Source: Escherichia phage vB_EcoM_Lh1B
Reading direction: 5' to 3' (one strand)
Sequence record: OK428535.1
DNA length: 64,000 nt
Part shown: positions 37,871 through 52,054 of the stretch, piece by piece
Layout: every line of letters begins with the position of its first letter
Position numbering within the stretch: the stretch's first letter is position 1
Made by a program: the position numbers and the translations under genes
The notes under the pieces: model-generated
What the model was told of the DNA's origin: nothing
The model's input: the letters and a program-made list of their open reading frames with translations, nothing else
Databases searched by the model: none

Positions 37871-38491
37871 ATGAGTCGTCGCAAAAAGAAACCCGCTTAT
37901 AACCCACGTAAAGACGCACGCGATTTCGTCAAGGCGATGATGCAGTCTGTGTTGAAAAAACAAGCTGTGTTTATCGAAAGTACCGAATTCCTGTCAGGCA
38001 AAATTGATCGGGAGCGTGAAGTAACTGAAGCCATTGCGCACGAAGAGCTGAAAGCTTTCACGTTGAAAGCGCTGGATGAAGCACAAGCGGCATTCCTCGG
38101 CATGTGCCAACAAGGCAAAGAGCTGTTCGGTAAACTGATTGTTGAGGCAGATGCTAAGGCTGTGCCGGTGTTTGACATGCTGAACGATAACAGCAAAACC
38201 TGGAAAGAGGTTAAAGACCAGTTCCACGTCGACCACACCGAGCTGTCTTTGATTGACCAGCGGGCGAATATGCTCGCGATGGATATCCAGGGCACCAGTA
38301 TCGAAATCTTCTCTACGTATAACGCGAAAGTGAAGTTCGTGAAGCAGGCGCTGAATAACGGGCATACCGTGGAACAAGCCGAAGTTCTGTTGGCCGAAGC
38401 TCTGGCTAATAATTCGAAAGAACTCCCTAAAAACGCCATCGTCGATCACAACGACGTTGTAGTAGAAACCGAGGAAGCGGCACATGTCTGA
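37871..38491 (+). CDS. hypothetical protein
   Basis: ATG at 37871 with AAAGGA upstream (MSRRKKKPAY...). Confidence 0.5.
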   Translation: MSRRKKKPAYNPRKDARDFVKAMMQSVLKKQAVFIESTEFLSGKIDREREVTEAIAHEELKAFTLKALDEAQAAFLGMCQQGKELFGKLIVEADAKAVPVFDMLNDNSKTWKEVKDQFHVDHTELSLIDQRANMLAMDIQGTSIEIFSTYNAKVKFVKQALNNGHTVEQAEVLLAEALANNSKELPKNAIVDHNDVVVETEEAAHV

Positions 38492-40454
38492 GATCCAAGA
38501 TCAGCGTCCGGGTAATGCCCGTCNCCCTAATCCCGATCAGCCAGCCCCTGTGGCGGCTGCTACCCAACAAGAGATGATTCTTCCGACCGTGCCTGATGAC
38601 GCGAATCCGGATGCAATCATCATGNCTATTAAACANNNNNACCCCNATTTTNNTTTTGCCCGTGCAGAAGAAGTTTATCACCAACATTATCATCAGCCGG
38701 AGCCTAAGCTCGAGCGTCCGACGTTTGTAGAAGAAGCTTTGCCCGAACCTGCTGCACCGGTACAGCCTGTATCCCAGACCTTCTCTGAACAGGTGCATGA
38801 GCATATTCATCACACCCCAGAACCGGNGGNAGAGAAANCGCCNGNGGNANAACCNNCNCCCCNNCNAAAAACNCCGGNNGGGGGNGNCCCNNNNAACCCG
38901 GGGNNAAAAAAAAAGNAAAACNCNNCNCCNAAGGTTCCGGAANAANAACAGGNCCNNGNGANTNACTTNGGTAANACCCATTTAGCTGAAACCGCCGAAA
39001 TGGGTGAAGATGAAGCTGATCGTATCCTGACACAGTCGAAGATGTTGATTGGTCTGAAACAAGACCCTAACATCATTGCAGACTCTCTGCAAAAGTTCCT
39101 CGGTAACATTAAACGTTCACCGAAAGACGGTCGGCTGCTGTTCGAAAGCCCTGAACAACAACAGGTTTACGACGACATCTATCGTGCTTTGAACATGACA
39201 CCGCCACGTCTACAGGACGGCGTACCGGCATTCGCTGGTGCACTGGACCGTGGTGACACCGCTTGGGAACAGCGTGTGATGTTGCCGGACGGTAAGGCAT
39301 CTGGTGCTATTGCACCGCGTGACAATATGCACACTGGCGCGCTGGCTGCTTTGCGTCGTGTACGTAAGTCGGGTATTCCGAACATGGTTTGGCTGCCGGC
39401 CACAGGTATCTACGTGNGCTTCCNCGCACCACATGAACGCGACCTTTGTGACTTCGACATGCGTCTAACACTGGAAACTGCGACCATCGGTATGCAGACC
39501 TACGGATTGATGCTGTCGTCGTCTTCTGGCGTGTACATGCGTCACATGGTTGAATTCGCACTTCAGTTTGTTACCGAAGCAACCATCGATTGTGCAGGTA
39601 ACGATCTGCGTACGGTGCTGTTGGATACCATTGATCTGGCTGACTACTGGCTGGTTATTCTGGGTCCGTTGCAGGCGAAGTGGCCGTCTGGTATTCCATG
39701 GACGCTGATGTGTGGCGAAGACGGTTGCACTCAGCAGGAAGATGTGAAGCTGAATATCGCACGTTGTATCCGTTTTGGTTCCGGTCTGTTTAGCGACCTG
39801 CAGAAANAACNGTGGGNACGTCAGCGCGGTACTGAGCGTCCAGTGATTTCTATTGCTGAACAGCGCGAATATATCGCGGCGCATCAGGTTGACCCATCCT
39901 CGGTATTTGAATACCACGACGTGCGTGTTGAATTTGGCCGTTCTACCCTGGGTAGCTTCTTTGACTCCACCGAGAAGTGGATTGAAGACGTTAACGCGTC
40001 AACTACGGCAGCGCTGTCTGAATTTGCTACCGAGCGTGAACGTGAATCCCATATGCGTTTAACTGCGGAAGCCCGTCGCTTAACGCGCTACGCTCACATG
40101 GTGAAATCTATCACTGTTAATGAGCAACGTGAAGTAAACGGTGAAATGCAGGTTATCCCACAAACTGAAACCGACACAGCGAAAATCGTTGAGATGCTGG
40201 AAGAGCTGTCTTCCGACCGTATCTACGTTGGTCAGTTTGAAAACGCGATTGCTGAATACAACGAACGTACACGTTTAGCGGTATTCGGTTACATGGGTAA
40301 ACGCTGCCCGGCGTGCGGTAAAACACACGGCGAGAAAGACGGTCTGTATCGCGGTATTGTTACCATCTCACCGGACAGGGTTTTTTTCGTGCTCTCTCGA
40401 GTGGTGTCCGAGATTCAGAAATTCTTGCTGGATCAATACGCCGATATTGGCTAG
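38484..40454 (+). CDS. hypothetical protein; Pro/Glu/Lys-rich low-complexity N-region, C-terminal CPACG zinc-ribbon-like motif
   Basis: 656-aa ORF; frame through 38521..38990 is provisional because of many N calls. Confidence 0.45.
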   Translation: MSEIQDQRPGNARXPNPDQPAPVAAATQQEMILPTVPDDANPDAIIMXIKXXXPXFXFARAEEVYHQHYHQPEPKLERPTFVEEALPEPAAPVQPVSQTFSEQVHEHIHHTPEPXXEKXXXXXXXPXXKXPXGXXXXNPGXKKKXNXXXKVPEXXQXXXXXXGXTHLAETAEMGEDEADRILTQSKMLIGLKQDPNIIADSLQKFLGNIKRSPKDGRLLFESPEQQQVYDDIYRALNMTPPRLQDGVPAFAGALDRGDTAWEQRVMLPDGKASGAIAPRDNMHTGALAALRRVRKSGIPNMVWLPATGIYVXFXAPHERDLCDFDMRLTLETATIGMQTYGLMLSSSSGVYMRHMVEFALQFVTEATIDCAGNDLRTVLLDTIDLADYWLVILGPLQAKWPSGIPWTLMCGEDGCTQQEDVKLNIARCIRFGSGLFSDLQKXXWXRQRGTERPVISIAEQREYIAAHQVDPSSVFEYHDVRVEFGRSTLGSFFDSTEKWIEDVNASTTAALSEFATERERESHMRLTAEARRLTRYAHMVKSITVNEQREVNGEMQVIPQTETDTAKIVEMLEELSSDRIYVGQFENAIAEYNERTRLAVFGYMGKRCPACGKTHGEKDGLYRGIVTISPDRVFFVLSRVVSEIQKFLLDQYADIG

Positions 40455-40950: not shown

Positions 40951-41808
40951 ATGATTGATATTTATACCGACTATGCGGCTGTATTGACAGTCAACCGTCA
41001 CGAAGGTCGTGCAGCACCGATGCTAGATTTAGTGACGCTCGGTATGGATTACGGTTACGATGTGGCGTTATCCGATGTTTATAGCAACCCGTTGTCTGAC
41101 CCTGCGGACGAAACTGTTCGTCTGGAATCCATTATCGTGAAGGTAGCGGTTGGGTTAGGCAACCGCCTCGGTATCGGACTTAATCCACAAATCGTCTTCC
41201 AGAAACCGAAAGAAACCGTACGTATCCTTCACGGTGTGTTGGAAGCCTTCGAAGAGTTCGAAGACAGTGATGCCCTTTACGGGATTGTCTCCTCTGGTGA
41301 GACACCAGAGTATATCCTGGAGAACATGTGTCGTTATGTTTACGGTGACGAAAACCTGCACTTCGAAGACCTGATTACTGTTGTCAGCCCACGCGTGCTT
41401 ACCGTGATGGAAAACTTCTTAGCGGCAGAGTCGTTGGAAAGCCAGAAAAGAAATGGCGATGATGAGCGCCAAGAGCGTATCGTCACTTACTTGCGGTTGT
41501 TCCCTGAGAACCCGTCAGCGTTTGTCTTTATGAATCTGCCTGCTGAACCAGACTTAACAGTGGTGCAACAATCGTTAGAATTTCGCGTAGAAGACATTAG
41601 CGAAATTGATTTGCTGACGATGTATGCGGTAGGTTTATCGATTATTCCTCATGCGGAGTTTGACGGGGCTTACGGTGACTTAGAAAAGAACCTTGCCTTG
41701 TTGAACGTCGACAACGTCCCGCCTGGAGAAATCTTGCGGAAAGGATTGGAAGCGTTGAAAGTCATATACGCTAGTGGGGTCGCGGAGGTAGATGATGAAC
41801 AAGATTGA
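40951..41808 (+). CDS. hypothetical acidic protein
   Basis: ORF; start ambiguous between 40924 and 40951. Confidence 0.45.
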   Translation: MIDIYTDYAAVLTVNRHEGRAAPMLDLVTLGMDYGYDVALSDVYSNPLSDPADETVRLESIIVKVAVGLGNRLGIGLNPQIVFQKPKETVRILHGVLEAFEEFEDSDALYGIVSSGETPEYILENMCRYVYGDENLHFEDLITVVSPRVLTVMENFLAAESLESQKRNGDDERQERIVTYLRLFPENPSAFVFMNLPAEPDLTVVQQSLEFRVEDISEIDLLTMYAVGLSIIPHAEFDGAYGDLEKNLALLNVDNVPPGEILRKGLEALKVIYASGVAEVDDEQD

Positions 41809-43090
41809 TTATCTGGTTGCTGCGTGTAAAGCAGAAGCTTGGCGTAGACTGGTGTGGCGTATTGCGGTTTTCAACGTGGCCATCTTTAATGAAAAAGGTG
41901 AGCCACCTGAGCAATACGACCTGAACTACATTGACGGCTTACCCCACTACTGGGAAAACGAAGAAACCAAGTGGGTGCCGATTGAAGGGTGCAAAAAAGA
42001 TGAAGAGCTGTTCGTGCCGGAAGAGCAGTTTGAATTGCGTCCTGAGATGTACCCAGGTTTAGCTGGTCCCATTCCAACTACTGTGGGTCGCTATGTCTTT
42101 AACTGGATTGCTATCTACTATGCTTTCGGTACCCGTCTCCCGTATCTGGCAGAGTCTCGTGACCCGCTAGCCTACCGTAAAGAGATGTATGAGCGTTGTG
42201 TGGAATATGATGACACCGATCCAGACAACGAAGACGCGATTCGACCGTACATGATAGGACGCTTTGTAGGGGGTCTGCACGAGCTTGCTCCGTTGTGTCG
42301 TGGGATTGCCCCAACAGGAACTATTAGAAGCCTTACAACGCATCCTGACGCGTATAAGGTACGAGATGCGTTGCTGTTGAAGCACAAAGACGAACTGGAT
42401 AACCCTGCGGTTATCGTTATGATTGAAAAAGCTCTCGACGAACTTGATAAAGAGTGGTTGAGTGGCGACCAGTCCGTTGAGTTCTACAGCTCTCCTAAAG
42501 CGCGTATGCGTCGCCGTAAGCTGATGCTGATGTACGGTATTCAGACCGCTTTTAAAGAAGGTGCAGATTTTACCTTAATCCCAACGAGCCTGATGGAAGT
42601 TGATCAGACCGGGATGAAGTATCTGGTAGAGAAATTCAATGATACGCGAGAAGGTTCCTTCATGCGTGGTGCAGAAACTGCCAAGGGCGGGGAGCAAGTA
42701 CGTATCATCCAGATGATTTTCCAGAACCACAAAATCGTGCCTGGGGATTGCGGGACAAAACTGACACATGCACTTGTAATTAACCAGTATAACTACAAGC
42801 GTTATGTTGGCATGAACGCGATGATTAACGGTAAAGTTACCCAACTTACTGAAGAGTATTTGAAAACGCAATTTGGTAAAGTTGTTCGACTCCGCCGACC
42901 CATCTTATGTCAGCAAGGTCACGTAGACTGTTGNGCGGCGTGCGCCTCTGCACACAAAGCAGAAGAGCCACGGGCAATCGCTGCGGATATCTCTTCCGGC
43001 TTCTCGAACGTTATGACCACTGCAATGGGTGCGATGCACGGTCGCGAAACCGTGGTTAAAGAGTACATCCCTAAATTCCACATCACCTAA
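41792..43090 (+). CDS. hypothetical protein
   Basis: 432-aa ORF, GGAGG upstream. Confidence 0.5.
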   Translation: MMNKIDYLVAACKAEAWRRLVWRIAVFNVAIFNEKGEPPEQYDLNYIDGLPHYWENEETKWVPIEGCKKDEELFVPEEQFELRPEMYPGLAGPIPTTVGRYVFNWIAIYYAFGTRLPYLAESRDPLAYRKEMYERCVEYDDTDPDNEDAIRPYMIGRFVGGLHELAPLCRGIAPTGTIRSLTTHPDAYKVRDALLLKHKDELDNPAVIVMIEKALDELDKEWLSGDQSVEFYSSPKARMRRRKLMLMYGIQTAFKEGADFTLIPTSLMEVDQTGMKYLVEKFNDTREGSFMRGAETAKGGEQVRIIQMIFQNHKIVPGDCGTKLTHALVINQYNYKRYVGMNAMINGKVTQLTEEYLKTQFGKVVRLRRPILCQQGHVDCXAACASAHKAEEPRAIAADISSGFSNVMTTAMGAMHGRETVVKEYIPKFHIT

Positions 43091-43103
43091 GGATTGTTTC
43101 CTC

Positions 43104-43604
43104 ATGACTAAGAAAGACACTACTACCCTTGACCCGCGTACAGAAGGCGTGGTCCGTGATAGCGCTTCTTACAGCAACGACGACCAATATCATGTTAAAC
43201 TGATCACCACAATGCTTGATGAAGCAGGTAACAATGCCGGCCCACGTAAAGCATCTGGTACCCAGGCTGAGAAAGATGCGTATAATAAGCTGCATCACTC
43301 TTTCCGTGAGCTGTTTAAACTGCGCGGTCAGGCCTTCCTGGACGGTTTCTACGCCTTTGTAGAAGCGGCTAATAAGCACCGTAACGGTATTTTCTACGCA
43401 CCGGCTGCTAATAACCGTATCAGTGAGAACTTCCCGAATCGTGACGAGCGTGAAGTCTTCGTTATCTTTATTAACATGCTGATTCGTTACGCACGTTGCG
43501 CCGATAAAGGCCGTTTCCGTGATACCAACGATGTTGACCGTCTGGCTCGTCGCCTGAACGACCCGGACCTGCGTTCGCTGGTTATGCACGCCTTTGGCGG
43601 TTAA
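43104..43604 (+). CDS. hypothetical protein, probably highly expressed
   Basis: ATG at 43104 after TAAGGA; CGT/CTG-rich optimal codons; followed by strong terminator. Confidence 0.55.
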   Translation: MTKKDTTTLDPRTEGVVRDSASYSNDDQYHVKLITTMLDEAGNNAGPRKASGTQAEKDAYNKLHHSFRELFKLRGQAFLDGFYAFVEAANKHRNGIFYAPAANNRISENFPNRDEREVFVIFINMLIRYARCADKGRFRDTNDVDRLARRLNDPDLRSLVMHAFGG

Positions 43605-43653: not shown

Positions 43654-45438
43654 TTAGAACCCGCAGATGTACTCCATAGGCTCTGTCACTACTTCCCCTT
43701 GCTTACGTAAGAACGTAGACAGGACAGTGTCTTTGTCCGGTAAGCAGAAGAAGTCTGTCGCTATTTCCATGGCATTAACTCGCCCAGCAGTTAAGTTGAC
43801 GCCCGTGCGACGTCGAATCTCTTCACTAACCCCATTGATGGACAGTAGTTCGATGAGTGTGGTCTCACGAGATTGGTTCATCATGTTTGTGGCCGAAGGG
43901 TAGGCCTGGGTTAAGTCCGCATCCGCAGTTTGTCCACGGAACGCAGAGTAATATTCGTCAATCTCCTCCAGAATGTTATTCAGACCGTTCTCAGCATTCA
44001 TACATGCTGTCAGGGTAACAATCCAACCGTCTGTACCGATAACCTCTTCATCGTAATCGTTACGCATTGCAGACCCTACGGAACCGATGACGTATCCTTT
44101 GTCATACAGATAATAGGTAAAGGCCACGCAGATACGTTTTGGTAGCGACGGGAAGATATCGTACATCGAGAAACCTGCCAGAATGGATATTGCCGAAGAC
44201 AAGTCGTTCGTTTTCTTATCCAACAACACGATTAACAAGTTATCCATCATGTTGTATACGGCATATTCGGCAGGGTAGTCCCGTTGTGCTTTTATGTGCC
44301 ATTGCAGGTTATCTTCATACGGCAGTCCAGGAATGTCGAGTTTGTGTAAACCGAGTTCGGTGTACAGTATGGCAGATAACTTGTACGAAGGACGTTGCCC
44401 TTCGTGGACACGCAACGAACGGAATAACACCATGGCATCCACACAGTAGAAAGACGCAGTACAGTAGAGTACGTGCCACTGTTGTGACGGTGCTTTGGTG
44501 AGTGACTTGGATTCCGTCTTTTTGTTCGCCTGGTCTTCTTTAAACCACAGACGACGGTATTTCTCCGGCACATCCGGATGGTTAAAGACGCCCAGTGGAT
44601 CGATACCTTCTTTCTGCAAGGTTTCCAACATGCGTGAAATATCGAACTGGTGGTTCCATGCGACCAGCAAATCAGGAAGACGCGGATGAATCTCTTCGAA
44701 CATCCTGACGATGCACTGCCCTGCCGTAGCGCAGGTATAGGTGAAGATTTTATAACCNCTGATAATGTCTTTGGTCTTTGTCNCCTTTTCGCCGGTCTTT
44801 TTGTCTTTNTCNTCGNATTCGNTTTTGNTTAAGAGTTCCTGCGCTTTTTTGANAATGACTTCTTCCGCGTTTTTACCGATGCGGTCCATGTAGTTCTTAG
44901 CACCAAAGAAATGGATTTCGTCGTCTAAGATAAATGACACGATCCACGGTTCCTTCGTGCCGTCCATTTCGTTGGTCTCCACGTCGTATACGCAAAGACG
45001 GTTAGGGCTGATGTTGTTCGGCCAGCGCTTTAAATATTTCTGTTTAATCCAGCTGGTAATCGGTAAGTCGGCCCAATAAACGTACGGGCTAGTACAGACA
45101 CGACGCAGGTTCTTTTTCGGGTCAGGGAAACGTGCACCTAAACCCATCTGCAACGTCTTCGCCATCTGCGCATCAGTAGTCCAGAGTTCTTGACATTTTC
45201 CTTTTTCTTCGAACTCTTTTTTCTCCTGGTGGTTACGATATTCTTCACGGGTAACGTACACCGGACGCTTTAAATTCTCACGCATTACCAAGCGCGGGAT
45301 AAGCCTGCCATCCTTAGTATGGATGACCTCTTTGATGAGGACAAAGTCATTTTCTTTTTCTTCGTCCGTCGCATAAGCGACGTGTTTGCACTCTTTAGCG
45401 ATGACATCCTCGGGTGCGTAATAGGTATTGATTTCCAT
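43654..45438 (-). CDS. family-B DNA polymerase, N-terminal fragment (3'-5' exonuclease domain plus motif A)
   Basis: Exo I YDVETN, Exo II WNHQFD, Exo III YNMMD with typical spacing; motif A DLTQAYPS (cf. T4/RB69 DLTSLYPS); ORF ends ~85 aa after motif A; some N calls. Confidence 0.65.
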   Translation of the reverse strand: MEINTYYAPEDVIAKECKHVAYATDEEKENDFVLIKEVIHTKDGRLIPRLVMRENLKRPVYVTREEYRNHQEKKEFEEKGKCQELWTTDAQMAKTLQMGLGARFPDPKKNLRRVCTSPYVYWADLPITSWIKQKYLKRWPNNISPNRLCVYDVETNEMDGTKEPWIVSFILDDEIHFFGAKNYMDRIGKNAEEVIXKKAQELLXKXEXXXKDKKTGEKXTKTKDIIXGYKIFTYTCATAGQCIVRMFEEIHPRLPDLLVAWNHQFDISRMLETLQKEGIDPLGVFNHPDVPEKYRRLWFKEDQANKKTESKSLTKAPSQQWHVLYCTASFYCVDAMVLFRSLRVHEGQRPSYKLSAILYTELGLHKLDIPGLPYEDNLQWHIKAQRDYPAEYAVYNMMDNLLIVLLDKKTNDLSSAISILAGFSMYDIFPSLPKRICVAFTYYLYDKGYVIGSVGSAMRNDYDEEVIGTDGWIVTLTACMNAENGLNNILEEIDEYYSAFRGQTADADLTQAYPSATNMMNQSRETTLIELLSINGVSEEIRRRTGVNLTAGRVNAMEIATDFFCLPDKDTVLSTFLRKQGEVVTEPMEYICGF

Positions 45439-45508
45439 GGTCTACTCTCAAATATGGTGTCTGCTATACTGATTTGTGGGTAACGTATTTTCTAAAAGGA
45501 ACGTCTAA

Positions 45509-46861
45509 ATGGGACACNGGNAAAANNANANAANCCCNTTGGCNNNCGNNAAANCCGNGGCCNCNGAANCCNNNGNNTTCNAAAAAAAAAAAAAANNCCC
45601 CTNTTTGGNGGNAGNGGNANGNANGTTNCGTGNTGCGGGNGACTTCTCGCCAGNGGGTTATCAGAGTTCTGGTATTGCTGCCTGGGTCTTTGACAACAAC
45701 GGTATTACAGTCCTGCCTCGTAACGGGTCCGACTTAGGTGTGGCGGACGTTGTGTTTGCGGGTGTGGAGCCGCCGAAGCTCGATGCGAACAACCCAATCA
45801 TCGCCGACCTGCAACGCAAGATGGTGCAGGGTAACACCGACCTGGATGTCTACAGTAAGTTCTTAAAAGAGAACGAACTGAACGGCGAGTTCGACGATAA
45901 AAATGCGAAGCTTTCAGGCGAACTCAGCAAGGTGCCGTCCCCACTTTGGCTGACCCCGAAACTACTGACCAGTATCGACTTAACGGATTTAGAAGTCGCG
46001 GCGATTATTCTACATGAAGTCGGCCACGTCTATTACTATTTCCGTACCTTGATGCGTACGGTGGTAACGAACCTGATTGCGGATGCTGCAGCGAACCGCA
46101 TGATGCAAACCGAAGACCCGACAGTGCGTTTGAAAGTCGTAAAAGACGTTGAACGTATGCTGAACACCAAAGTGAATCAGCCGGAAACTATCTGCAAAGA
46201 GATGTCTAAAGAGAACATCTACATGCATCTGGTGACGGACATTCTGCTTGAGCGTCCATTTGTTACCGGTTCGGAAGGGTTCGCTAACCGTACCTGGGAA
46301 CGTGCTGCAGATGACTTCGCAGCTCGCTTTGGTGCAGCCCCGTACCTGGCGTCAGCCCTGTACAAAATCGAAACGTCCCAATTCTATCTCTGCCGGAACG
46401 CGTCGTACATGAACTACGGTGTGCATCTGATGCTGGAAATGCTTAACGTTTCGCTGCTGATTGTGGCTTCGACTAATCCAGTTGGCCTGTTCTTCACGAC
46501 TATCTCGGTGGCGTTCGGTCTGATTGTGAACGACCCACGCAACACCATCTACGATCCGCCGCAGGAACGTTTTGAGACGATGCGTCGTAACTTAGTGGAA
46601 GAGCTGAACACCTTAAAAGGTAGCACCACGAAAGAAGCGAACGAACATCGTAAACGTATTCTGCAGGGCATTGCGTCTATCGACGAATTACTGAAAACCG
46701 TGAAAGACAAAGACAACGTCTTTAGCTTCATCATGAAAACGCTGACCCCTGGCGGTCGCCGTGAGCGCGCTGGTGTGGATTATCAGCGTACGATGGAGCG
46801 NTATCTTTCTAATGACCTGCGTGTGGCTTCATCAAAGCTAAGCCGGGCTACCGTTTCTTAA
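45509..46861 (+). CDS. M48-like (HtpX/Ste24-type) zinc metalloprotease candidate with C-terminal hydrophobic segments
   Basis: HEVGH ~95 aa before ERAADDFAA (ExxADxxA third-ligand motif); hydrophobic stretch LLIVASTNPVGLFFTTISVAFGLIV; true start uncertain because N calls fill 45518..45653. Confidence 0.5.
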   Translation: MGHXXXXXXXLXXXKXXAXEXXXFXKKKKXPXLXXXXXXXRXAXDFSPXGYQSSGIAAWVFDNNGITVLPRNGSDLGVADVVFAGVEPPKLDANNPIIADLQRKMVQGNTDLDVYSKFLKENELNGEFDDKNAKLSGELSKVPSPLWLTPKLLTSIDLTDLEVAAIILHEVGHVYYYFRTLMRTVVTNLIADAAANRMMQTEDPTVRLKVVKDVERMLNTKVNQPETICKEMSKENIYMHLVTDILLERPFVTGSEGFANRTWERAADDFAARFGAAPYLASALYKIETSQFYLCRNASYMNYGVHLMLEMLNVSLLIVASTNPVGLFFTTISVAFGLIVNDPRNTIYDPPQERFETMRRNLVEELNTLKGSTTKEANEHRKRILQGIASIDELLKTVKDKDNVFSFIMKTLTPGGRRERAGVDYQRTMEXYLSNDLRVASSKLSRATVS

Positions 46862-46876
46862 GTAAGGGTACTTAAC

Positions 46877-47320
46877 ATGACGCATAAAGTTTCTTTAAAT
46901 AACCTGGTACTGGATTTCAAACGTACCAACGAAGGGAAAGGTGTACACGCCCAGCGTGCTTTGACCGGTCTGGTTGCTTTCTCACTGGCGTATAACGCGG
47001 TATTGGCTGACAATGGCCAATATGGCGCTGCAGAGGCCGCTGGGACGTTTTTACGTCCGGTAATGCGTAATATCGTCTCTGACGTTAACGAGCTGTACTG
47101 TGTTGATTTAGGCGTGATTGAGGACATGACCGTGGGTCTGTACTGCAATCGTTACTGCAACGTGTATGGCGGCGCTAAAGCTCTGGAAAGTTTCTCAGTT
47201 CGTGAGATTTTCAACCAGGCACTCGGGGAAGATATCTGGGAAACCGTCGGTCTGTGGATTAGCCGCTTTATGGAAGTGGTTGGTTTCTACATGGCAGAAC
47301 TGAAAGGGCAGATTTCATGA
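46877..47320 (+). CDS. hypothetical protein
   Basis: 147-aa ORF, AAGGG upstream. Confidence 0.5.
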   Translation: MTHKVSLNNLVLDFKRTNEGKGVHAQRALTGLVAFSLAYNAVLADNGQYGAAEAAGTFLRPVMRNIVSDVNELYCVDLGVIEDMTVGLYCNRYCNVYGGAKALESFSVREIFNQALGEDIWETVGLWISRFMEVVGFYMAELKGQIS

Positions 47321-49050
47321 GCATGGAAATGACAGGTAACGCCACCCACCCCAAATGGCGTTTGGGGGAGATCGGTGAAGTCCTGCGTTCACGTATGGCC
47401 GAGCGTATTGATTCTGNCANCCANCTCAATCTGTACATGCAACGCAACGAAGCCGACTTAATCTACGGCTCTCGACTGATTCTGCAAATAGACGCGATTC
47501 TTGATGAGGTGCGACGCGCTGGCCTATCGAAAGATGTCGCTGTCGCTGTTGAATCTTCCCGCCCAGGCACAATTCCCGAAGCTGTCCGCAAAATCCTGAC
47601 CTCTAACTATACCCGCACGCACCAGAAAGAGACTATTGTTGCGCTCGAGTCCTGGGCAAATGCAGGTAAAGTGGGATTGGTTGTGTTAATCATGACCGCG
47701 ATTATCAAAATCATCGGTTGGATTATCAGCAACGGTAACGGGTTTGCTGGTAATGGCGAATTCGACGGCGAAGGTTACGCTGAGAAAGTCGGCGAAAAAG
47801 CAGAGAGTTTCTCCCAGACCGAAAACACTATCATCGGTCAGCTGAAAATCAGCGCAGTGAAAGATGCATACATCGAAGCCTCTAAGGGTCTGAAAGGTCG
47901 TGACCTGGAAAACCTGAACTTGGCTATCGCGATGGCCGACGAAGTGTTTACGAACATGAACGCGGAAGAGTATCTGAACGACTTGAGCAGCGCGCTGGGC
48001 CGTTCGCCGTTCACTGAATTGTTCAAAGGTTACACTAAGAAACGCCAATCGAGCCAGCAGGTTATTCACGACCTGTTAGATACCCTGTTACAACACAACG
48101 TAACTTACGGTATCTATCCGATTGAGGTGGGTAAGAAAGCCTGGCAGGCATTGCCGAAGTCTGCACGTGAAGCCGGTGTACGTATTCCGAACCTGTTGAA
48201 CTTCCAACAGATGTCGAATGTTGCCAGCGAACTTATCGGCTACTTTGGCTCCCTCCAAAGTGCCTTTAAAGCAATGATCGACCCAAGCGTTGCCGAGGGT
48301 TTTAAGAATCAGCAAGGTTCAACCACTACCCATAACGGTAAGCAGGTCAATAAAGCAGCACACGACACCGCGCTTATCTTCGGCCAGGCGTTAGCGCAGC
48401 TGAACACCACGATGAACTTCATCATCAGCGACGTTTCCCGCAAAGGATTCGAATACGCTACTGCACCTTTGGTCGTTATCCCAGAAAACAAAGTTCGCGG
48501 TTTAGTGGGTCATGACGATGGTGTGGACTTCGTGCCTGGTAAGGTATTGGTTAATGCACAAGCATCGGCGTTCTTGGGACGTGAATGCTTAGAGCAAATG
48601 CGCCAAGCGGGCACGTTATCGGTTGGCGACGAACGTGAGCTGCTGGCCGTGGTAGTAACGCTAGGTAAACAAGGTTTTACTAACGACACCGCCGCGACTA
48701 ACCTGAACCGTTACAGTGCACTGGATAAGGCGGTTAATAACACGATTAAAGTGTTGGAGCAGTTCCAGAAAGCAACCAAGGATAACGCTGAATACGTTAA
48801 CCTGATTAGCGAAGTCATTATGAACGAGCTTAATCAACCTTCTGGTCTGCGCACCGACGGTCGTGAACTCTCGATGGTGTTATTCTCCCCAGACGGTGAT
48901 GAAGACCTCTTCGTCGGCTTGCGTCGTAACCTGTCGTTGGTGCGTCGTTGTTGCGGTGCTGCCGCTACACTGCAGACGATACTGAACCTGGCCAAACGTA
49001 ACCCGTTGGTGAAAGGCAATAATCGCAAAAACATGCTTGACGGCGAATAA
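47317..49050 (+). CDS. hypothetical protein with one predicted transmembrane helix
   Basis: 577-aa ORF, ATGA overlap; hydrophobic segment KVGLVVLIMTAIIKIIGWIIS. Confidence 0.55.
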   Translation: MSMEMTGNATHPKWRLGEIGEVLRSRMAERIDSXXXLNLYMQRNEADLIYGSRLILQIDAILDEVRRAGLSKDVAVAVESSRPGTIPEAVRKILTSNYTRTHQKETIVALESWANAGKVGLVVLIMTAIIKIIGWIISNGNGFAGNGEFDGEGYAEKVGEKAESFSQTENTIIGQLKISAVKDAYIEASKGLKGRDLENLNLAIAMADEVFTNMNAEEYLNDLSSALGRSPFTELFKGYTKKRQSSQQVIHDLLDTLLQHNVTYGIYPIEVGKKAWQALPKSAREAGVRIPNLLNFQQMSNVASELIGYFGSLQSAFKAMIDPSVAEGFKNQQGSTTTHNGKQVNKAAHDTALIFGQALAQLNTTMNFIISDVSRKGFEYATAPLVVIPENKVRGLVGHDDGVDFVPGKVLVNAQASAFLGRECLEQMRQAGTLSVGDERELLAVVVTLGKQGFTNDTAATNLNRYSALDKAVNNTIKVLEQFQKATKDNAEYVNLISEVIMNELNQPSGLRTDGRELSMVLFSPDGDEDLFVGLRRNLSLVRRCCGAAATLQTILNLAKRNPLVKGNNRKNMLDGE

Positions 49051-49052
49051 AA

Positions 49053-49098
49053 TAAAAGGCTACCCTCTCCTTCGGGAGAGGGTAGTGCTTTTTTTATT
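49053..49098. terminator. bidirectional terminator between convergent operons
   Basis: Hairpin CTACCCTCTCC-TTCG-GGAGAGGGTAG with A-run before and T-run after. Confidence 0.7.
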
Positions 49099-52054
49099 CT
49101 TTTTCGGTATCGTGACGGTTGTACGACAGTACGATGTCATCTTTCAAACCGATGTCGCCGTTGGCTTCAATATCGAGTTTCTTACCAATTGTAGCTCGCG
49201 CTGCTTCGGTAATGACAGTGAACAGTCGCAGGTCTTTATCTGGCCCCATGTCGTCGAGTTCAACACCGATAATGGCATCGTTAAGCGTATTGCGTAACGC
49301 ATTACCGATCTCGGTTGCTGAAACGGTCAGATGTGTTGACAGATAGTCGTTAATGACTTGCGAAGTCCGTTTCCGGATTTGTGCCAGAAGCTCGCTGTTT
49401 GCTCGGTTCGCTGCCGTGAGGTAATATTTGACAGTGAACTGGTTTTCAGCAGGCAACGGTGACACAACTCCGTCTTCGGTACGTACATCGATATAACCCA
49501 TCGTGGTAATAGGAACAAAGAAGCCTTCAGTTTGCTCCAACAGCAGCGGTTTCAGATTCGGTAGTACCACCGTAACGTAGTTGATGATATTGTCAATCAC
49601 GCTATCAAGGTACGCTTTAACCGCTTTCGAGGTTGCGAACTTATAACGGGCATCGAAGACAGCCATTTCACTACGGAACTTAATACTGCGCGGCTTCGCA
49701 ATAATAGGCTGACCGTTCCCGTCGAAGATTTGTTCCCCAACGTGGTGTGCGATTTCTTGCTCACCGGTGGCCGGGTCTATTTTCGGATCGCCTTTGCGAT
49801 GCAGGTACGTGATTTGCAACGGTGGAACAGCATCAGGGTCGTACGTGTACTCAGGTGTTACGCCATCGTCTTTGGTTTTAATAACATCCTTTTCCCAATA
49901 CGCCAGAACGTCCTCCTGGTAGTATTCGTAGTTGATGCTGTCCGTTACTGCACGTGCTTTTCGCCNGTAATAGGACATGGCTTTACCCAGCTCGATTTTG
50001 AAAATCTCATGAGTAATCCCAATACCATCACGCGCAGGTGGTACAATCATTGTATCCATTTCAGCACGTTCGTAATTACCGGGGTAGTAACCCGTACAGC
50101 CGTAGAACACGTTATACTCGGTTAACAACGGTGCAGGTGTGTCCACATCCACTTCGGTGGTGATTCGGGTGTTGTTGATAATCAGCTCATCGTTACGGTC
50201 AACGTCGAGATTGGTTTTCAACAAGAATTCCCATACACGCTCCGAACCTTGACGACCCACTAAGGTGCCGTTGATGTACNCCAACTTACCGTNNGNGTTA
50301 CGCGGCGAGAAGGAAATCTGCGCAAAGACTTGGTCATCACTTAACGCCTGGTATGGCGGTTCTGATTTAGTCACAGTGCGCAGGATATAACCTTCGGCCG
50401 TTTTCTCAATCTGATAATCTGCAGTGACAACACTCAGCTCCGTTGTCACGTTGGTGCTAACGAAACGTTTTGAGTTCAACTGCGGTTTATCGAGTTGGTA
50501 AATACGAACATCGCAAGATTTGTTGTTAATGTCCACCACGTAATGGAACGGCGTGAACAGGTAACGGTTAGTGTTACCCGCGTTAACCAAATCTTCTTTA
50601 CGCATGGTCTTCGCAAGGATGGTCATCTCCGCATCGATTTGTAGACTGGTATCCGTAAAGCGATACAGCGTATCTGGCTCAATTGTCAAACGGTTGCCGT
50701 TAATACGGACCGTCGGCAGTTTCACCAGTTCATCCCAGCTAAAGTACAGCGGGGCGGTGATGGTCCCGATAGGGGAACTCACTTTAGATAACGTGGATTC
50801 CGGCATCGGCGCGGTCAGGAAGTAAGTACGCCCAGTTACGTAATCGTTCGGCTTAGACAAGGTCAGGCCGTAATCCGATACCGTGGCTTCTAACTGTTTC
50901 TCTGTTACTGGCAGTTTGCGAATCCCCACTGCATTGTTTACCANACGGTCACGCAACTCATCAAACGAAAGTTGTGTACGGCCCCCGGTGGCGTAACTGC
51001 CTTCTTCCGCAACCAGCATTTTGATGGAGAATGATTTCAACGGGTTGATGTATCCCGCATCGTATTCACCGTTCAAGTCTCGCAATGAGAAGGTGTACTC
51101 GTCCGCCGGGAATGCAGAAACGTCGAGGTCGAGTGGCCCGATGGTCGTATATACGTCCATGCGGATTTCACCACTTACCAGGTTCTTCGCCATGTAGATA
51201 GACGGTATCGTACAACGAATGGACTGGTTAACGACTTGAATCAGCGCCGTAGGCGTGTTTGGATCGTAAACGTCACGACTGTGCGTGTGGTGGATTTCTG
51301 TCCAGGTGTTTGAATTGGACGGTTTATTCCACACCCGTGCGTAGAAGAACTTGTTGGTGAACGTGCGCGTCATCACAAACGTGTTCTGCCCCAACAACGT
51401 ATCGTTCTCGTCCTTTACACTGTACTGCATCACCGGAATACGGATAGCCAGTATCTGCGACGGTGTGCTAGGAACACTTGTCAACTCCCAGTCCAACGCG
51501 TTAGTGGTTACGGGCGATATCGGTGACTGAGTTTCGGTAATCCACAAGACCTGGAAGGCTGGATTATCAACGGTACCATACGGCAGCACTCGAATTTCGA
51601 TAGGATACTGGATGGCAAAGTTGTAACCTGAAACAGTAAAGACGGTATCCCGTGGAATCACGACTTTACGAATACCTGCCACGTTTAACGGCATCGCCTT
51701 CGCTAATAGAGAGTCGACATCTAGAAGCAGCAGTAAGGTCGCTTGTGATGGCTGGGCAAAAACATCGACATAATCCACGTCAGACATGTGGCGGAACAGA
51801 TCGTCGTGAGTTTGTGCCATAGAGGGGAACATTTTCGGAATGGTGTCCCGATCGCCCTGGATAATAGTGTGGCCCATCGTAATTCCGACCTCGGTCATGT
51901 AGACCACCGGGTCGGTCGGGTCACGTAGCAGAATTTGCCCGTCGGCGTCCTGCACGTCTTGGAGCTGGTTCAGCATTAATGACTGCATTGCCGATGGGTT
52001 ATGTGCCATCAGCAGCAAGTCTTTCGATAATGCGTCGTACGTTTTCGTAGTCAT
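49094..52054 (-). CDS. large hypothetical protein (possibly structural)
   Basis: 986-aa minus-strand ORF, 1-nt TAATG coupling with upstream ORF. Confidence 0.6.
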   Translation of the reverse strand: MTTKTYDALSKDLLLMAHNPSAMQSLMLNQLQDVQDADGQILLRDPTDPVVYMTEVGITMGHTIIQGDRDTIPKMFPSMAQTHDDLFRHMSDVDYVDVFAQPSQATLLLLLDVDSLLAKAMPLNVAGIRKVVIPRDTVFTVSGYNFAIQYPIEIRVLPYGTVDNPAFQVLWITETQSPISPVTTNALDWELTSVPSTPSQILAIRIPVMQYSVKDENDTLLGQNTFVMTRTFTNKFFYARVWNKPSNSNTWTEIHHTHSRDVYDPNTPTALIQVVNQSIRCTIPSIYMAKNLVSGEIRMDVYTTIGPLDLDVSAFPADEYTFSLRDLNGEYDAGYINPLKSFSIKMLVAEEGSYATGGRTQLSFDELRDRXVNNAVGIRKLPVTEKQLEATVSDYGLTLSKPNDYVTGRTYFLTAPMPESTLSKVSSPIGTITAPLYFSWDELVKLPTVRINGNRLTIEPDTLYRFTDTSLQIDAEMTILAKTMRKEDLVNAGNTNRYLFTPFHYVVDINNKSCDVRIYQLDKPQLNSKRFVSTNVTTELSVVTADYQIEKTAEGYILRTVTKSEPPYQALSDDQVFAQISFSPRNXXGKLXYINGTLVGRQGSERVWEFLLKTNLDVDRNDELIINNTRITTEVDVDTPAPLLTEYNVFYGCTGYYPGNYERAEMDTMIVPPARDGIGITHEIFKIELGKAMSYYXRKARAVTDSINYEYYQEDVLAYWEKDVIKTKDDGVTPEYTYDPDAVPPLQITYLHRKGDPKIDPATGEQEIAHHVGEQIFDGNGQPIIAKPRSIKFRSEMAVFDARYKFATSKAVKAYLDSVIDNIINYVTVVLPNLKPLLLEQTEGFFVPITTMGYIDVRTEDGVVSPLPAENQFTVKYYLTAANRANSELLAQIRKRTSQVINDYLSTHLTVSATEIGNALRNTLNDAIIGVELDDMGPDKDLRLFTVITEAARATIGKKLDIEANGDIGLKDDIVLSYNRHDTEKE

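Follow-up and report, generated by a model that had tools for sequence, protein, structure and literature searches.

The subject of this work is a cassette of three genes in a 64,000 nucleotide (nt) stretch of the genome of Escherichia phage vB_EcoM_Lh1B (OK428535.1), referred to below as the window. The genes encode proteins of 450, 147 and 577 amino acids (aa) and are named here after their counterparts in phage SPN3US; gp45, gp46 and gp47. It is concluded with high confidence that the trio is a conserved head-gene cassette and that gp45 is a distant M48-like gluzincin whose catalytic set of HExxH, a Glu in NRxxExxAD and a conserved Y/H-D-x-P-x-x-R is intact, carried at about 50 copies in the head and trimmed at the site ASE-20. 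The genes and the virion location of their products were already known, and the new point is the very probable presence of a metalloprotease in these heads.

When the region was compared by megablast it was 95-98 % identical in DNA to SPN3US-like jumbo phages of Salmonella, Escherichia and Proteus (genus Seoulvirus), and its products share 99-100 % protein identity with SPN3US gp45, gp46 and gp47 wherever the window is readable. In both phages the genes are located between gp44 (part of a DNA polymerase) and gp48 (a 986-aa tail protein). All three SPN3US proteins are classed as 'Head' in the published Table S2, and their mass spectrometry (MS) counts are maintained in purified tailless heads (PMC5694885, PMC10052503, PMC5105663). 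The neighbouring gp48 behaves as a tail protein would, with ~415 peptide-spectrum matches (PSMs) per replicate in whole virions versus 7 in tailless heads, and its phiKZ relative, of the gp87 family, is termed a putative baseplate wedge protein in the phiKZ transposon sequencing (TnSeq) preprint. An initial annotation of the window, made from its letters alone, had regarded the three genes as the likely seat of an undescribed system and had considered a zinc protease module not to be a standard structural function; the identity of the trio and its detection in tailless heads contradict this.

The assignment of gp45 to the zincins was examined at the level of its family. An exhaustive profile search at E<=1e-3 yielded 2433 cluster representatives, and 974 of these scored below 1e-30; almost all are 410-460 aa long and can be aligned over their whole length. 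Conservation was determined on a set of 64 diverged relatives with 22-67 % identity, and the sole positions invariant in all 64 are G137, H169, E170, G172, H173, E264, D268 and R354. Both HExxH and ExxAD are retained in 145 of 148 family representatives; two of the three exceptions are fragments, and the third keeps HExxH without the second motif. In the AlphaFold2 (AF2) model of gp45 (predicted local distance difference test score, pLDDT, 75; predicted template modelling score, pTM, 0.76) the HEVGH sequence sits in a helix at residues 160-199, after a strand at 143-148, and the predicted model has the M48-type catalytic-domain fold.

Profile comparisons point in the same direction. The Pfam family Peptidase_M48 (PF01435) is matched at E<0.01 by 28 of the 64 relatives, the best at E=2e-5, and when the family profile was run against the PDB human ZMPSTE24 was found at E=5e-5, with its HELGH and SRRFEFQAD (the E415 region) aligned in order to HEVGH and NRTWERAAD. 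From NCBIfam there was only a fragment of HtpX, at 12.8 bits versus a cut-off of 422, and single-sequence searches of the PDB with gp45, gp46 and gp47 returned nothing meaningful. The bare pattern HExxH...ExxAD is nonspecific, as one other open reading frame (ORF) in the window matches it. This ORF (38466-40451, plus strand, 662 aa) has its HEHIH...EDEAD match within an N-rich low-complexity stretch, and the match was judged to be due to chance. It is the family conservation, the profile matches and the fold, and not the pattern, which lift the gp45 finding above chance. The M48-like (HtpX/Ste24-type) reading of the initial annotation is thus upheld; judged from sequence, gp45 is very probably an active zinc protease and its relation to M48 is remote.

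A further motif, [Y/H]-D-x-P-x-x-R, directly follows the hydrophobic stretch of gp45 and occupies the usual place of HPxxxxR, a typical C-terminal motif of M48 peptidases. Y348 is found in 60 of the 64 relatives (with H in the other four), D349 in 63, P351 in 56 and R354 in all. No M48 chain was matched when a profile of the YDxPxxR fragment was searched against the PDB, and the hhalign alignments to HtpX and BepA stop short of the motif. It is possible that the motif is the counterpart of HPxxxxR.

The family extends to the distant phages phiKZ and Goslar. The window protein matches PHROG 2767 at E=2e-155, and full-length homology was detected to phiKZ gp84 (probability 99.96 %) and Goslar gp67 (E=4.9e-106), both of which retain the two motifs (HEIGH and ExxAD). 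The phiKZ gp84 record carries the note 'structural head protein', and a Goslar gp67 peptide which spans HEIGH has been detected by MS. In SPN3US the serine prohead protease gp245 cuts gp45 after ASE-20, as determined by MS, and removes a propeptide of 20 residues. The site is a family feature; E20 and Q25 are invariant in alignment A1 and the propeptide ends in x-x-E, followed by S/A-I-x-F-Q. Ali et al. noted the likeness of the gp45 propeptide to the capsid-targeting sequences (CTS) of T4, which are likewise short (10-20 residues), N-terminal and removed by the prohead protease after a glutamate. The T4 internal proteins themselves differ from gp45, as they are small, non-zincin and injected, and the gp45 propeptide may have a targeting role by analogy. 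In the phiKZ TnSeq data, zero insertions remained after filtering in orf84, orf85 and orf86. The gp45 protein appears to be essential, and it is conserved across phiKZ-like jumbo phages.

The linkage of the three genes in relatives, which was one of the checks named in the initial annotation, is strongly conserved. Of 71 loci in which a gp45-type ORF was called, 32 show exactly the order -gp44 +gp45 +gp46 +gp47 -gp48, and most of the other loci are variants with the same core, down to ~24 % identity; the set holds near-duplicates, and the counts describe the set and not independent events. In phiKZ the cassette consists of gp84 (413 aa), gp85 (149 aa) and gp86 (422 aa), convergent with gp87, and in Goslar of gp67, gp66 and gp65, in the same order and orientation beside a gp87-type tail gene, at 20-25 % identity. 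Within the window the junctions are tight, with a 15-nt gap between gp45 and gp46 and a 4-nt ATGA overlap between gp46 and gp47, and no plus-strand terminator-like site was found within the trio. Co-transcription of the three genes is plausible.

The initial annotation had also suggested that the cassette could act in defence, counter-defence or envelope remodelling, as a module unrelated to virion structure. Although proteases do occur in defence and anti-defence systems in general, three of the three proteins are head components by MS, no match to gp45, gp46 or gp47 was found among the PADLOC models at E<=0.01, the cassette is located among conserved virion genes in all relatives, and it looks essential in phiKZ on a laboratory host. 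Such a function is considered very improbable.

Gene fusions tie gp45 more closely to gp47. In seven of the eight long family representatives (804-1452 aa) the protease domain is preceded by one or two gp47-like domains. These putative metagenomic fusions (P0055, P0066, P0085, P0094, P0123, P0134 and P0166) all keep the junction x-x-E|S/A-I-x-F-Q, equivalent to ASE|SIGFQ of gp45, and the eighth long representative (P0122, 963 aa) has a C-terminal extension instead. In the fusion lineages the gp47-like and gp45-like parts would be made as one chain and split by the prohead protease inside the capsid. The abundance of the separate proteins is also similar. In SPN3US heads gp45 and gp47 gave 899 and 829 PSMs respectively, and in Goslar gp67, which is unmodelled in the map, was estimated at ~48 (32-76) copies per virion versus 55 modelled copies of gp65. 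These copy numbers agree with a stoichiometric relationship, of roughly one gp45 per vertex-complex protomer.

Together with the operon and fusion linkage to structural proteins, the defined, moderate copy number of gp45, which is similar to that of vertex-complex proteins, could fit a gp45 that is a non-enzymatic part of the head. Such a protein, for example an adaptor for the vertex complex or inner body or a stabiliser of either, would have a zincin fold and keep the motif only for metal-dependent folding. A merely structural metal site would not, however, need a general base, and E170 is invariant beside the three ligands and D268 down to 22 % identity, in a family in which the loss of either motif is confined to the three exceptions given above. 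The invariance of the general base favours an active enzyme, and a purely structural gp45 is regarded as improbable.

The partners of gp45 were compared with phiKZ and Goslar using hidden Markov models (HMMs) of the gp46 and gp47 families, which were built from the neighbours of gp45 homologs at 80 IMG/VR loci with the targets left out. The gp46 HMM detected Goslar gp66 at E=1.9e-14 and phiKZ gp85 at E=4e-4, in small-database searches, and the family has its size (144-149 aa) and position in common with gp85 and gp66. The gp47 HMM, in small-database searches which give a transitive link, detected Goslar gp65 at E=6.2e-21 over two tandem gp47-like domains and the shorter phiKZ gp86 at E=2.2e-12. 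The gp47 and gp86 proteins align best in the propeptide, at the cleavage site (ALE|S versus SQE|A) and in the helix that follows, which in gp86 is amphipathic and belongs to a capsid-bound protein. No significant match to gp86 was obtained in hhalign with a narrow profile of the SPN3US-clade gp47, and a fold search found no resemblance between the gp47 model and the solved gp86 chain (8y6v_G). From these profile matches gp46 is assigned to the gp85/gp66 family and gp47 to the gp86/gp65 family.

In cryo-electron microscopy (cryo-EM) structures phiKZ gp85/gp86 and Goslar gp66/gp65 form a 'vertex-binding complex' located on the capsid wall's inner side at the vertices (PMC11297242; bioRxiv 10.64898/2026.04.21.720040), in which gp85/gp66 is a dimer at the centre of the inner complex and gp86/gp65 is the peripheral component. 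By relation to these proteins, the Lh1B proteins would have the same vertex location; a capsid model of SPN3US that contains these chains was not found. The genetic coupling of gp45 to two vertex-complex proteins is strongly supported. As the initial annotation had predicted for the 577-aa ORF, gp47 has a single hydrophobic helix; it is essential in SPN3US, where it is cut at AVE-79 and probably also at ALE-111, and where a TMHMM prediction of this helix was published and the protein was called an ejection protein. The family assignment of gp47 exposes a conflict in the literature, between an ejected transmembrane (TM) protein (SPN3US gp47; window 47317-49050) and a family that is capsid-bound, in the vertex complex, by homology to its capsid-wall relatives gp86 (L003:5677-6945) and gp65 (L086:24884-27688).

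A possible role outside the capsid is raised by the hydrophobic segment of gp45. Residues 303-341 are the most hydrophobic region in the family, and AF2 predicts two helices here, at 303-320 and 324-340. The segment 314-341 is above the classical Kyte-Doolittle threshold in most relatives and has a charge in at most 6 % of the 64 sequences; its letter sequence is variable, yet the hydropathy is conserved. Such a segment could mean that gp45 is stored in the head, ejected with the DNA and inserted by this segment into the inner membrane, or the membrane of the early phage infection (EPI) vesicle, where its cleavage of envelope or membrane proteins, or of phage proteins injected along with it, would establish infection. 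In keeping with this, about 50 intact copies are kept in mature heads, outside the ordered capsid models, injection of numerous head proteins into a lipid vesicle is known from chimalliviruses, and Ali et al. argued likewise for gp47 from its predicted TM helix. On the other hand, two cryo-EM structures show the relatives of the partner proteins attached to the capsid wall, so that a TM-like helix of this cassette can serve as an interface between proteins. The fusions with gp47-like domains furthermore argue for association with capsid-bound proteins, and gp45 is highly conserved across hosts, in contrast to ejected proteins that interact with the host, which would be expected to evolve fast. 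Ejection as a membrane protease is a serious alternative, if on balance an unlikely one.

A more specific proposal is that gp45, gp84 and gp67 are virion-delivered membrane metalloproteases that enter the host inner membrane on ejection and help to build, maintain or later open the EPI vesicle which shelters the genome, where they might cleave host membrane proteins or co-injected phage proteins; this is considered rather unlikely. The gp45 protein may be membrane-anchored, as proposed in the initial annotation; the hydrophobic segments in the cassette are real, but in the solved relatives the gp47-type helix sits in a capsid-bound protein.

The reading preferred here, which is put forward tentatively and falls somewhat short of probable, is that gp45 would be a peptidase at work inside the (pro)head on unfolded phage polypeptides. 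Support for it comes from the fusions and the operon, from the copy number and from the wider conservation of gp45 relative to gp47. In tblastn searches of phage records 250 were found for gp45 versus 72 for gp47, and phages with the gp45 family infect many different Gram-negative genera; this far wider conservation suggests a phage-encoded substrate. Recruitment of gp45 to the prohead would occur together with, or through, the gp47-type protein, as is suggested by the fusions, in which the junction stays cleavable, by the common operon and by the similarity in copy number. The cut made by the prohead protease gp245 would release or activate gp45, which would then act within the (pro)head as a second, metal-dependent peptidase. 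Its likely substrates would be the long propeptides and scaffold-like fragments that remain after the A-x-E-specific serine protease has acted (the propeptides to be cleared are 111-254 residues long), and by degrading or trimming them gp45 would allow the fragments to exit the shell. In the mature head it would remain flexibly tethered near the vertices.

Several points weigh against gp45 as an intracapsid M48-like protease. With regard to the enzyme, the gathering score of PF01435 (20.3 bits) is reached neither by the window gp45 (17.9) nor by that of SPN3US (17.7), and in hhalign comparisons of the family with single E. coli proteins only the strand and the HExxH helix were aligned (HtpX, 85 % probability; BepA, 31 %). 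Literature searches turned up no enzymatic, genetic or localisation experiment for gp45, gp84 or gp67. With regard to its place and role, a catalytic maturation enzyme need not persist at ~50 intact copies in mature heads, in which the serine prohead protease itself is scarce. The gap in TnSeq insertions in orf84 could be due to polar effects on orf85 and orf86. No solved structure with a gp84 homolog was found, and gp84 and gp67 are unseen in the phiKZ and Goslar capsid maps, which makes any association with the vertex complex indirect. The conserved, uncharged segment of ~28 residues, variable in its letters, has the look of a helix that faces lipid, for which a role within the capsid offers no explanation. 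Finally, T4 and HK97 clear their propeptides with a single protease.

With regard to known peptidases, gp45 was compared with M48 proteins (Ste24/ZMPSTE24, HtpX, Oma1 and BepA) and with the minigluzincins proabylysin and projannalysin. Besides the low Pfam score, it differs from them in a region of ~150 residues at the N-terminus and a helical region of ~100 residues at the C-terminus, which have no counterpart in either group. The hydrophobic segment of gp45 comes after the third ligand, whereas the TM segment of HtpX comes before it. Unlike M48 proteins gp45 is packaged in a capsid, it has Y/H-D-x-P in place of the usual HP motif, and it has no signal peptide or lipobox. Proteases of virus particles offer a second comparison. 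In adenovirus the protease AVP is present in tens of copies per virion, and vaccinia has the metalloprotease G1 alongside the cysteine protease I7. By analogy, gp45 may resemble AVP as a protease retained in the particle in tens of copies, or G1 as a metalloprotease in core maturation besides the main protease; neither has any sequence or fold relation to gp45, and substrates have been demonstrated for AVP and G1 only.

Two observations on the distribution and behaviour of these proteins are noted in their own right. Near-identical SPN3US-type gp45 and gp47 (P0001, P0184-P0227) are present on ~240-kb contigs in many assemblies labelled Salmonella enterica and some labelled E. coli, and one such cluster alone spans 172 contigs. 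This suggests that isolates are frequently sequenced together with the phage, whether by a carrier state, by pseudolysogeny or by contamination. In glycerol gradients of phiKZ-infected cells (PMC10914614), 75 % of gp84 and 37 % of gp86 were in the pellet and gp85 was mostly in the light fractions. The pattern may reflect assembly intermediates or membrane association; samples pooled from 10-30 min do not tell injected from newly made protein.

The features of the locus are collected in Table 1. The ORFs, HEVGH, the ERAAD sequence, the hydrophobic stretch and the bidirectional terminator listed in the initial annotation were all confirmed in position. No sigma-70-like site was found in the 70-nt divergent gap, which is as expected, as the phage transcribes with its own RNA polymerases. 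That annotation had also advised resequencing to fix the start of gp45, but the start codon and frame agree with the complete SPN3US gene and resequencing is not needed for this purpose.

Table 1. Coordinates of the gp45-gp47 cassette, its flanking genes and the motifs discussed, as positions in the window.
Feature	Position	Strand	Remarks
Flanking gene, DNA polymerase part (SPN3US gp44)	43654..45438	-	PHROG 3011, E=1.1e-250; divergent from the trio in most relatives
Divergent intergenic region, 70 nt	45439..45508		Between the gp44 gene (-) and the gp45 gene (+)
gp45 gene, 450 aa	45509..46861	+	M48-like zinc metallopeptidase (predicted), gp45-type head protein; PHROG 2767
Ambiguous-base cluster, 38 bases	45518..45654		Masks gp45 codons 4-49, including the ASE-20 site
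gp45 prohead-protease site ASE-20	45560..45568	+	By homology to SPN3US; codons masked in the window
HEVGH, aa 169-173	46013..46027	+	Two zinc-ligand His and the catalytic Glu
NRTWERAAD, aa 260-268	46286..46312	+	Third zinc ligand E264 within (N/S)RxxExxAD
ERAAD, aa 264-268	46298..46312	+	95 residues from HEVGH
Hydrophobic stretch of gp45, aa ~303-341	46415..46531	+	Kyte-Doolittle scan; placed after the third ligand
YDPPQER, aa 348-354	46550..46570	+	[Y/H]-D-x-P-x-x-R motif of the family; immediately follows the hydrophobic stretch
gp46 gene, 147 aa	46877..47320	+	gp46-type small head protein; PHROG 8529, E=1.8e-77
gp47 gene, 577 aa	47317..49050	+	gp47-type essential head protein; PHROG 8131, E=3.4e-248
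gp47 prohead-protease site AVE-79	47545-47553	+	A-x-E motif present in the window
gp47 prohead-protease site ALE-111	47641-47649	+	A-x-E motif present in the window
gp47 hydrophobic helix, aa 117-139	47665..47733	+	Sole such helix in the 577-aa ORF; directly after the maturation cleavage site
Terminator-like hairpin, bidirectional	49059..49086		12-bp stem with 7 G-C pairs; T-runs on each strand; end of the trio and of the convergent gp48 gene
Flanking gene gp48, 986-aa tail or baseplate protein (phiKZ gp87 family)	49094..52054	-	PHROG 3248; convergent with the trio

The window contains 133 ambiguous bases in 21 clusters, of which those near the cassette are at 44758-44853, 45518-45654, 46801, 47417-47424, 49966, 50280-50296 and 50944. 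The X-runs in the gp44, gp45 and gp47 translations reflect sequence quality and not biology. The SPFM-series Salmonella phage records give the best DNA matches, in alignments that are fragmented. Upstream of the trio, positions 41792-43090 encode a split multisubunit RNA polymerase beta-type subunit (PHROG 2962); the virion RNA polymerase of SPN3US includes gp42 as a packaged subunit. This gene is overlapped by the start of a small conserved ORF at 43029-43604 (PHROG 7825). The start at 43029 is probably too far upstream, as the PHROG match begins at residue 26 and the SPN3US product is annotated as 166 aa.

Phages of the phiKZ-like, nucleus-forming jumbo group package more than 50 different head proteins, most of which have no known function, and maturation of their capsids has been attributed to a single serine protease. 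In the SPN3US papers gp45 figures as a functionally uncharacterised head protein and no metalloprotease is mentioned, and recent cryo-EM, TnSeq and review papers list the gp45-type protein as unknown or not at all. Some GenBank records are already labelled automatically as 'beta-barrel assembly-enhancing protease' or 'M48 family lipoprotein protease'. A metalloprotease in the heads is discussed neither in the proteomics papers on SPN3US nor with the structures of phiKZ and Goslar, in two TnSeq preprints or in a 2026 review, and in literature searches that combined M48 or metalloprotease with jumbo phage, phiKZ gp84 or Chimalliviridae no paper was found to make the assignment.

The gp45 family is best described as a capsid-packaged, divergent M48-like subfamily. 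It would add a second, metal-dependent protease to these phages, for maturation of the head or for the initiation of infection, and if the proposal concerning the EPI vesicle were true it would be the first enzyme assigned to this newly discovered stage. With amber mutants of SPN3US, Cas13 selection in phiKZ and GFP-packaging assays in Goslar already in existence, the assignment gives a hypothesis that is immediately testable.

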